A stretch of 64,000 nt of DNA from Pelistega sp. (GTDB taxonomy: Bacteria > Pseudomonadota > Gammaproteobacteria > Burkholderiales > Burkholderiaceae_B). A model generated the notes under the pieces. It saw only the letters and a list, made by a program, of their open reading frames with translations, had not been told where the DNA came from and did no database searches. Below, in pieces: positions 22,574 to 24,557 of the stretch. Location of the stretch: the NCBI GenBank assembly GCA_030538255.1, contig JAUNUI010000012.1, forward strand, positions 17,490 to 81,489, given 5' to 3'. Both the position numbers and the translations under genes were made by a program. Every line of letters starts with the position of its first letter. The first letter of the stretch is position 1.

Positions 22574-22903
22574 TTAAATCAGGTACATCCCAACACCATA
22601 GGCCACGATGCCTAGCAACATGGCAATACCGATATTCTTAGTGGCTTTCAGCGCGATACCAACAATCAAGACAGCCACCACATAAGCCCCGATATGCCAT
22701 GCGCTAGGGGCCTTATGAATTTCTGAATAGAGCACCACCGCTGTCGTGCTCGTCAATAAGGCAGGACCTAATATGGCAAAGCGACCTGAGCCTAAGCGCG
22801 AGAGCCATTTGCTTTTTTGCATAATTAAAAAAGGCACTGCCCGCGTCGCATAGGTTAAGACAGCCATGGCCGCAATGGCGGCATACATTTCCCAACTGAT
22901 CAT
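22574..22903 (-). CDS. azlD: branched-chain amino acid transport protein AzlD
   Basis: 109-aa small hydrophobic protein downstream of azlC. Confidence 0.75.
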   Translation of the reverse strand: MISWEMYAAIAAMAVLTYATRAVPFLIMQKSKWLSRLGSGRFAILGPALLTSTTAVVLYSEIHKAPSAWHIGAYVVAVLIVGIALKATKNIGIAMLLGIVAYGVGMYLI

Positions 22904-22907
22904 TGTG

Positions 22908-23063
22908 CACCTACCTTATTCTCTGGCTCGACTAACATTACCCATGCACCTACCTTATTCTCTGGCTCGACTAACATTCCCCATGCACCTGCCTTACTCT
23001 CTGGCTCGACTAGCATTCCCCATGCACCTGCCTTACTCTTTAGCTTGACTAAGATTTCCCAAT
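22908..23063 (-). repeat. 39-nt x4 tandem repeat filling the azlC-azlD gap; each unit is a Shine-Dalgarno (SD) site plus a 9-codon mini-ORF
   Basis: The units lie at 22908-22946, 22947-22985, 22986-23024 and 23025-23063. On the minus strand each reads TAAGG(C/T)AGGTGC ATG GGN AAT GYT AGT CGA GCC AGA GAR TAA. Confidence 0.95.
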
Positions 23064-23767
23064 TAACCATGTTGCACCTGCTGACTCTGTGGTGTGTAGA
23101 AGATGCAAGCCACTGCCGCGCCAACTAAGATGGCCACTGTTGACCAACCTAGGGCCGCCACAATCACACTACTGAGGGCTGCTAATAGCAAGGCTCTTAC
23201 CATAGGACCTTGAATCGTTAATAAGGTAACGGCAACGAACATGGCGGTGAGTGAGAAGCCCAAGGTCTGACCTAAGAGTGGGAATGAACGCGTAATCGAC
23301 TCACCCGCGAAGATGCCAATGGCCGTGCCTGTTAACCACGATAGCCAGGCAAATATGCCTAAACCAAAGTGCCAAGCGGTCTTGCCCTCGGGTGCAATAT
23401 CTTTTAACTTTAAATAACACACAGCAAAGACCTCATCGGTGAGATAGAACGCCTTGGCCAATCGCGTCTTTAAGCCCGGTGGGATATAGCGCTCAATAAT
23501 CGGACCATATAAGAGATGGCGCACATTAATTAAGGCCACGAGAAACACCATGGTGACGATGGGCGTACCCAATTGCAAGGAGGCCAAGATTAAGAACTGA
23601 CCACTGCCTGCATAGACAAAGAATGAAATTAAGAGCAGCTCAACAGGGCTTAGGCCCATGCTACTACCACCGACACCAAAGGCAAGGGATGCCGGAAGAT
23701 ACCCCAGCATGGTCGGCACAGCAGCCCGAATGCCTTGGATAAAATACGAAAGTTGAGATTTATGCAT
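23063..23767 (-). CDS. azlC: AzlC-family branched-chain amino acid permease component
   Basis: GYLPASLAFGVGG...SFFVYAGSGQF... The start overlaps the ATPase stop (ATGCATAA). Confidence 0.8.
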   Translation of the reverse strand: MHKSQLSYFIQGIRAAVPTMLGYLPASLAFGVGGSSMGLSPVELLLISFFVYAGSGQFLILASLQLGTPIVTMVFLVALINVRHLLYGPIIERYIPPGLKTRLAKAFYLTDEVFAVCYLKLKDIAPEGKTAWHFGLGIFAWLSWLTGTAIGIFAGESITRSFPLLGQTLGFSLTAMFVAVTLLTIQGPMVRALLLAALSSVIVAALGWSTVAILVGAAVACIFYTPQSQQVQHG

Positions 23768-24557
23768 CTCGCCAAACCACCATTGTTTTTTCTTTATTTA
23801 AAGGATGTTCCATTATATAAGCCCCGAGTCCAAACAGTCTAGACAAGTTCTCTTCGCTTAAGGCCTCTCTCGGCACAGCATCAACGAGAATCTGTCCCGC
23901 ATCGAGTAGGACCAAGCGATCGGCATAATAAGCCGCGATATTCACATCATGCAAAACCATTAAAACCCCTATCGGATGCGCGCGTGTTAATTCGCGTACG
24001 GCTCGCATTAACTCATGTTGATACTTCGGGTCTAAAGCATTCAAGGGCTCATCAAGGAACAAGTAGGAAGCGCGCTCTGGCCATAACTCACGTTGCGCTA
24101 ATACTTGCACCAAGACACGAGCGAAATGCACGCGCTGTTGCTCTCCGCCTGAGAGACTGATTAATTGGCGTTGCTGCAAACTTGGGATACCTGCCAAAGT
24201 CATGGCTTCTTGTATAAGTTGCGCGCTCTGCGTGGGTAGCAATTGCTCAAAAGGATATAAACCCATCTCCACCACTTGCGCTACGCTAAGGGCAAAAGGC
24301 ACCACGCTCTGCTGCGCTAAGACCGCACGACGCTGTGCTAATTGTTGGATTGTCAGGCCAACTTCGCCATCATAGCTTAGAGCTTCTACCTGATGTGCAT
24401 GCTCACTGCTACCCGCCAGAATATGTAAAAGCGAACTCTTACCTGCCCCATTCGCCCCTAATAAGACCACGAGCTCTGAAGGCTTGAGCGACACACTAAT
24501 TTGATCTAATACAAGGCTTTGGCCAAGTCTTAGCTGAATATTCTGTGCCTGTATCAT
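23760..24557 (-). CDS. ABC transporter ATP-binding protein (FecE/HmuV/BtuD-like)
   Basis: Walker A GANGAGKSSLL, signature LSGGEQQRV, Walker B LFLDEP. ATGA overlap with the permease gene. Confidence 0.9.
   Translation of the reverse strand: MIQAQNIQLRLGQSLVLDQISVSLKPSELVVLLGANGAGKSSLLHILAGSSEHAHQVEALSYDGEVGLTIQQLAQRRAVLAQQSVVPFALSVAQVVEMGLYPFEQLLPTQSAQLIQEAMTLAGIPSLQQRQLISLSGGEQQRVHFARVLVQVLAQRELWPERASYLFLDEPLNALDPKYQHELMRAVRELTRAHPIGVLMVLHDVNIAAYYADRLVLLDAGQILVDAVPREALSEENLSRLFGLGAYIMEHPLNKEKTMVVWRDA

Follow-up and report, generated by a model that had tools for sequence, protein, structure and literature searches.

A variable-copy 39-nt tandem array between azlC and azlD in Pelistega and the open reading frame that joins the two genes

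The azlC–azlD junction and its tandem array

The DNA analysed here, referred to as the window, is a stretch of 64,000 nucleotides (nts) from a genome of the genus Pelistega (C44:17490-81489 of genome G000). On its minus strand lie two adjacent, co-oriented genes whose products carry the Pfam domains AzlC and AzlD, the domain pairing by which the genes of a two-component amino-acid exporter are recognized (Table 1). The gap between them measures 159 nts, of which four 39-nt units fill 156, followed by ACA and the azlD ATG at 22903. TRF reports a single array at 22906-23061, with a period of 39, 4.0 copies, 91% matches, and a score of 235. The gap is not the product of a frameshift or sequencing error hiding a longer AzlC, as the protein is full length (234 aa), ends like its relatives, and has an identical stop on many independent contigs. 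Elsewhere in the 2.95-Mb genome the 39-nt unit is not found, the next best matches having E ≥ 0.37 over 14–20 nts. The unit is thus unique in the genome, which rules out a dispersed repeat family.

Read in the frame of azlC and azlD (frame A), each unit holds a nine-codon mini-ORF. The three downstream units (u1–u3) encode MGN(A/V)SRARE followed by a stop, and the unit abutting the azlC stop (u0) encodes LGNLSQAKE and a stop from a TTG start, differing from u1 at 7 of 32 positions by manual count. The TAA of each mini-ORF is embedded within TAAGG(C/T)AGGTG, whose pairing with a generic anti-Shine-Dalgarno (SD) sequence is calculated at −9.6 to −9.7 kcal/mol. A preliminary description of this locus had recognized four 39-nt units, each with an SD and a nine-codon ORF, a diverged unit at the azlC stop that retains frame, length, and stop, and a last unit that supplies the SD of azlD itself. 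All of these features are borne out by TRF, by the coordinates, and by the unit readings; the azlD SD, TAAGGTAGGTG, indeed comes from the last unit and is separated from the ATG by 4 nts.

Another reading frame on the sense strand, not noted in the preliminary description, is likewise open from end to end of the array, and stop/start overlaps connect it with the gene on either side. This bridge ORF begins at the ATG at 23070-23068, which overlaps the azlC stop as ATGGTTAA, and ends at the TGA at 22902-22900, which overlaps the azlD ATG as ATGA. Its 56 codons specify MVNWEILVKLKSKAGAWGMLVEPES KAGAWGMLVEPEN KVGAWVMLVEPEN KVGAQ before the stop. This peptide has no Pfam match, and the only homologues found for it are its own shorter alleles; homologous ORFs of 30, 43, and 56 aa were called on other contigs by the depositors' gene callers. 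A programmed frameshift fusing the bridge ORF to AzlD was considered and rejected, as manual reading of the sequence finds no slippery site at GCA CAA TGA.

The upstream junctions of the operon are overlaps as well. The ATPase gene meets azlC in ATGCATAA at 23760-23767, and the permease gene meets the ATPase gene in ATGA at 24554-24557, both on the minus strand. If the bridge ORF is counted, stop/start overlaps connect all the genes from the FecCD permease to azlD. On the opposite strand, an antisense ORF of 60 aa (MAAMAAYISQLIIVHLPYSLARLT...) is open through the array (window 22866-23048, plus strand); it is without support and probably incidental.

Table 1. Features at the azlC–azlD junction (positions are those of the window)
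Feature	Coordinates	Strand	Remarks
azlC	23063..23767	−	234 aa; Pfam AzlC PF03591, 1.6e-34
azlD	22574..22903	−	109 aa; Pfam AzlD PF05437, 6.6e-10, profile positions 2-97 of 99
Four 39-nt tandem units	22907..23062	−	TRF and coordinate check
u0 (diverged unit)	23062-23024	−	39-nt unit
u1	23023-22985	−	39-nt unit
u2	22984-22946	−	39-nt unit
u3	22945-22907	−	39-nt unit
Relic (ancestral) azlD start codon, ATGGTTAA	23063..23070	−	overlaps azlC stop, d = −8; sequence and working starts of relatives
Bridge ORF, 56 codons and TGA	22900..23070	−	ancestral azlD frame, through four units
Four nine-codon mini-ORFs	22916..23062	−	azlC/azlD frame; each TAA inside the next TAAGGYAGGTG
Individual mini-ORFs	23062-23033 (TTG start), 23023-22994, 22984-22955, 22945-22916	−	
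azlD Shine-Dalgarno, TAAGGTAGGTG	22908..22918	−	from last unit; 4 nt between duplex and ATG; anti-SD duplex −9.7 kcal/mol
ATGA, bridge-ORF stop TGA overlapping azlD ATG	22900..22903	−	d = −4

Origin from an ancestral overlapping junction

Relatives without the array reveal what the junction looked like before it was split. In G004, Pelistega indica, Pelistega suis, G008, and contig L042, the azlC stop and the azlD ATG lie in an 8-nt overlap (ATGNNTAA/TGA/TAG). The junction reads ATGGCTAA in G004, a MAG whose AzlC is 90% identical and whose AzlD starts MANWEMY, ATGGCTGA in P. indica, ATGCTTAG in P. suis, ATGCTTAA in G008, and ATGACTAA in L042. Across the family and the order, most azlC/azlD junctions have d = −4 or −8. 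Given this prevalence and the 8-nt overlap in the relatives, the ATG at 23070 can be identified as the ancestral azlD start, contained within the last azlC codons, CAT GGT TAA. Consistent with this, 17 of 19 bases of the relic CATGGTTAATTGGGAAATC agree with the G004 junction CATGGCTAATTGGGAAATG (manual count), and the first residues encoded by the relic, MVNWEIL, are similar to those with which AzlD begins in a 70%-identical relative, MGNWEIL.

At the present azlD start (ACAATGATCAGTTGGGAAATG), the ancestral junction occurs a second time, and the units that lie between the two copies are shortened junction copies, each with an SD region, CAGGTGC, followed by TGG-GxA-ATx. Read in the old azlD frame, the unit still retains the Trp codon that is invariant in AzlD. 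The mini-ORF ATG would then be assembled from the A of GCA and the TG of this conserved Trp codon of the copied azlD 5′ end, and the mini-ORF SD is a copy of the azlD SD. From these comparisons, the array is a lineage-specific minisatellite of variable copy number, grown from a duplication of the azlC/azlD junction. The preliminary description had offered a by-product of tail duplication as its fallback, and was right about the origin: relatives that lack the array have the 8-nt overlap, and the array begins with a relic copy of this overlap and of the azlD 5′ end.

The body of u0 is less easily traced. Its 23 nts (CTTAGTCAAGCTAAAGAGT..., window 23024-23053) share the 9-mer CTTAGTCAA and the following GAGT with the first azlD codons of P. 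suis, which read ATG CTTAGTCAA TTT GAGT (L010:2205-2235). The 9-mer may be common to both by chance, or may be a trace of where the unit body came from.

The junction has been remodelled in other ways within the group. In the Logan contig L042 (667-1203; AzlD 80% identical), a 210-nt insertion sits just after the ancestral overlapping ATG, in frame with azlD, and the resulting AzlD is 178 aa long with a 69-residue Thr/Ser/Ala-rich N-terminal extension. Such an in-frame insertion is another way in which the old start stays connected to azlD. In G001 (L012), azlC and azlD are set apart by 123 nts of AT-rich sequence that is closed by stops in all three frames and has an SD of its own (TAGGAGCATAGTATG); the genus thus also includes an uncoupled arrangement of the pair. 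In L043, the two genes are separated by a 13-nt gap.

Unit number and bridge frame among population haplotypes

Exact-protein look-ups returned many ENA and Logan wastewater contigs, which collapse to nine distinct junction haplotypes; two scans of JGI metagenomes found no alleles, and all extra alleles come from the ENA and Logan contigs. None of the runs in which the locus was found is an RNA run. Two units are present in the G005/L007 and L035 types (bridge ORF of 30 aa in each), three in L039 and L061 (43 aa in each), and four in L065 and the window (56 aa in each). In the L040, L058, and L068 types, a sister lineage, the array is replaced by a non-repetitive 69-nt spacer that aligns only patchily with it, and the bridge ORF spans 26, 27, and 26 aa, respectively. 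The L040-type AzlD protein is indexed in 223 blocks of the collection. The bridge ORF is kept in all nine haplotypes. In the L058 type, the first ATG of an ATGATG has become ACG, and the bridge ORF continues for one more codon and stops at the ATGA that follows.

An identical AzlD protein is encoded on contigs with two, three, or four units. Furthermore, Logan contigs from five runs, two of which are possibly one data set filed twice, skip exactly 78 nts. These copy numbers derive from short-read assemblies, in which near-identical units can collapse, and some of the two-unit contigs could be artefacts; the divergence of u0 from u1 speaks against this, however, and several pipelines and k-values gave contigs with two, three, and four units. 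Since the unit is 3n in length (13 codons), gain or loss of units by slippage never breaks the chain from azlC through the bridge ORF to azlD.

The L068/L069 haplotype combines an L058-type spacer with an L040-type ATGATG start, which suggests recombination between co-occurring strains. On the ENA contig L045 (1-60), azlD is truncated to 82 aa: before its MQKSKW codons stands sequence related neither to azlC nor to the 5′ end of azlD, which may reflect a rearrangement or an assembly chimera.

Minisatellites are abundant in this genome. A TRF survey (period ≥ 18, copies ≥ 1.9) counted 344 arrays in its 2.95 Mb, or 117 per Mb. By crude gene calls, 247 of these are intergenic, in about 16% of the genome, and 75 of the 79 genic arrays have 3n periods. 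Sampled DNA of relatives gave densities of 119 per Mb in G005, 100 in G004, and 90 in G001, the G005 and G004 samples being small (2 and 4 arrays), and of 30 in G006, 25 in P. suis, and 17 in P. indica. A lineage-wide tendency to tandem duplication is the likely source of the array. Among 143 minisatellites between co-oriented genes, however, the azlC–azlD array alone combines a start codon close to the stop of the gene before it, a frame that stays open throughout, and a stop codon at the start of the gene after it.

Proposed routes of translation across the array

Upon the observed anatomy, origin, polymorphism, bridge-frame conservation, and lack of RNA structure, one account is favored here with modest confidence: that of a junction-derived, copy-number-variable minisatellite whose 3n period preserves the coupling from azlC through the bridge ORF to azlD. 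The 8-nt overlap of the ancestral junction would have been split with the old ATG left in place, opening the 56-codon ORF. Ribosomes ending azlC would re-initiate at the relic ATG (d = −8), in the very geometry that serves azlD in the relatives, and would then translate the bridge frame through all units. Termination on the ATGA, beside the strong SD of the last unit, would be followed by initiation of azlD (d = −4). In published measurements, re-initiation peaks at AUGA (d = −4) and varies little between d = 0 and d = 25 (PMC4538824), and the −4 coupling of the ORFs in mycobacterial MIRUs is an accepted precedent (PMC12548453). The bridge ORF would thereby be translated, with a consequence for AzlD output. 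The mini-cistrons are real ORFs but seemingly secondary; they may supply extra points of ribosome entry.

Several observations count against a strong functional claim. The SD of the relic ATG is weak, at −4.7 kcal/mol versus −7.1 to −8.3 for the working overlapped starts of the relatives, while that of azlD, at −9.7 kcal/mol, is the strongest among the starts compared, so that azlD may not need coupling. G001, with its 123-nt spacer, and L043, with its 13-nt gap, do without azlC/azlD coupling. The nine haplotypes amount to roughly two semi-independent observations, because they share common ancestry and slippage of a 3n unit transmits its open frame as a matter of course. Indeed, the bridge frame (frame B) may be open only as the legacy azlD frame.

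A lesser but live possibility is that the array is neutral filler. According to this alternative, the minisatellite was born of slippage, azlD is freshly initiated at its own strong SD in an unstructured region, the bridge and mini-ORFs are incidental to the copying of the junction, and unit number has no effect on AzlD. A genome with some 344 arrays of period at least 18, most of them intergenic, would readily furnish such a filler, and the uncoupled genes of G001 and L043 are evidently viable. Manual codon reading detects no purifying selection in either frame: differences among the u1–u3-type units are two synonymous and two non-synonymous in the mini-ORF frame, and one synonymous and four non-synonymous in the bridge frame. 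Less easily accommodated is the persistence of the bridge architecture through a sister spacer that can barely be aligned and through the loss of one ATG, as is its occurrence in a single array of the 143 between co-oriented genes. Moreover, with the relic ATG still in the context that works in the relatives, entry of ribosomes into the bridge frame is to be expected with or without selection for it.

The preliminary description had proposed a termination–reinitiation relay through the mini-cistrons. In this scheme, a ribosome that terminates at a TAA is retained by the TAAGGYAGGTG around it and starts again 9 nts downstream, repeating this in each unit until azlD is reached. A general translational hand-over is plausible, and each unit does offer the necessary parts: an SD of −9.6 kcal/mol, an ATG with its nine codons, and a TAA that falls within the SD of the following unit. 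The stop-to-start distances of +9 and +12 nts fall within the measurable range of re-initiation (PMC4538824), and the mini-ORFs are intact in every repeat-type haplotype. The mini-cistron route is nevertheless the weaker candidate, and an improbable one, as it is missing from the L040, L058, and L068 haplotypes, which share the split junction; there, frame A contains one or two stops and no consistent starts. The spacing of its signals is also poor: the mini-ORF ATG lies 1 nt from the AGGTG core and 7 nts from TAAGG, while the azlD ATG is better placed at 4 nts, and in u0 the only start is a TTG that lacks a usably spaced SD. The relay would require four or five re-initiations in series, with multiplying losses, and ribosomes in the bridge frame would run over the mini-ORF start sites. 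Finally, the relay neither needs nor explains a 3n period; the bridge ORF does need one.

Synonymous differences between units had been put forward in favor of the mini-ORFs, but with the counts given above this argument has no power. The comparison of unit number and mini-ORF dN/dS across relatives, suggested at the same time, yielded the variation in number (2, 3, and 4), but the dN/dS half is powerless, there being too few differences between units. Four identical mini-cistrons are one observation copied four times and not four independent ones.

A more ambitious version of the coupling account is a long shot. It would cast the array as a selected, copy-number-tunable device for loading ribosomes, in which each unit adds a strong SD and two start codons, one opening a nine-codon relay ORF and the other lying in the bridge frame that ends on the azlD ATGA. 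By slipping among two, three, and four units, the array would provide a heritable means of tuning the AzlD:AzlC ratio of the exporter in wastewater populations, and the minisatellite-rich Pelistega lineages (~100 arrays per Mb) would retain repeats at coupled operon junctions only where these are compatible with the frame.

Hardly credible, by comparison, is a cis-acting nucleic-acid element, be it an RNA structure or attenuator, a promoter or terminator inside the array, or a series of regulator sites such as those of CsrA. The units do space GGA-containing motifs regularly, and tandem sites can in principle bind regulators. However, the mRNA strand folds more weakly than 199 of 200 shuffled sequences (MFE −39.7 vs. 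−47.2 kcal/mol for shuffles, z = +1.96) and the array has no Rfam match at E ≤ 1, on which grounds a riboswitch, attenuator, or other structured RNA was rejected. Within the array, neither a promoter-like nor a terminator-like site was found, and an internal promoter or terminator was set aside. With a weak fold, no terminator-like site, and no Rfam match, the array likewise lacks the alternative terminator and antiterminator structures that accompany the short ORF of a leader-peptide attenuator. A CsrA-binding array was rejected for lack of a csrA gene in this 100%-complete genome, in a search that gave matches in control genomes, and the unit occurs at the azlC–azlD locus only. These readings, from preserved coupling to neutral filler, relay, and other cis element, are not mutually exclusive.

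Relation to known systems

The closest known system is the mycobacterial MIRU, exemplified by the intercistronic repeats of senX3-regX3 in Mycobacterium (MIRU-VNTR; Supply et al., 1997, as summarized in PMC12548453 and PMC3184786). Like MIRUs, which are tandem units of ~40–100 bp in intergenic regions within operons, the 39-nt units measure tens of bases, lie between genes of an operon whose other junctions are ATGA and ATGCATAA, and would be transcribed with it. In both, an ORF through the units overlaps the upstream stop and the downstream start (−4), here from 23070 to 22900, and the number of units varies between strains; in this case, two, three, or four units were seen in short-read assemblies, with two in G005 and 78-nt skips elsewhere. 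Unlike MIRUs, a dispersed family with ~40–50 loci per genome and signs of insertion, the azlC–azlD unit occurs at a single locus in 2.95 Mb and came from local junction sequence. Its host is a betaproteobacterium, there is no sequence relationship, and a second, overlapping set of mini-ORFs occupies another frame. By analogy, then, the array can be called MIRU-like in mechanism, but it is not a MIRU.

A second parallel is with short upstream ORFs that deliver ribosomes and with the synthetic bicistronic design (see PMC12548453 for a review and PMC4538824 for measurements of re-initiation). The bridge ORF resembles these in being short, in having no evident protein function, in carrying the downstream SD within its last codons, and in ending in ATGA. 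Its translation is predicted, and it differs in being coupled to the gene upstream as well, in consisting of repeats, and in having a length that changes from strain to strain.

Lastly, the array belongs with intergenic VNTRs or minisatellites of the kind used for MLVA typing. These are high-identity, head-to-tail units whose number is polymorphic among near-identical strains, a polymorphism most simply explained by slippage or unequal recombination, and the azlC–azlD array has all of these properties, none of which requires a function. What sets it apart from an ordinary VNTR is its location, precisely at a stop/start overlap within an operon of tightly coupled genes, and its retention of an ORF that connects with the genes on either side.

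Significance

The near-identical strains surveyed here present a natural series at one gene junction: no insert, a non-repeat spacer, and two, three, or four units. This series suggests that a repeat can split a tightly overlapped gene pair without loss of translational continuity. It also indicates that MIRU-like coupled ORFs can arise from local sequence and outside the mycobacteria. The logic of annotation is corrected as well, in that the small ORF which several assemblies place between the two genes is what remains of the azlD start rather than a new gene. Should AzlD output prove to be tuned by unit number, the array would constitute a simple contingency locus that acts on translation rather than transcription.
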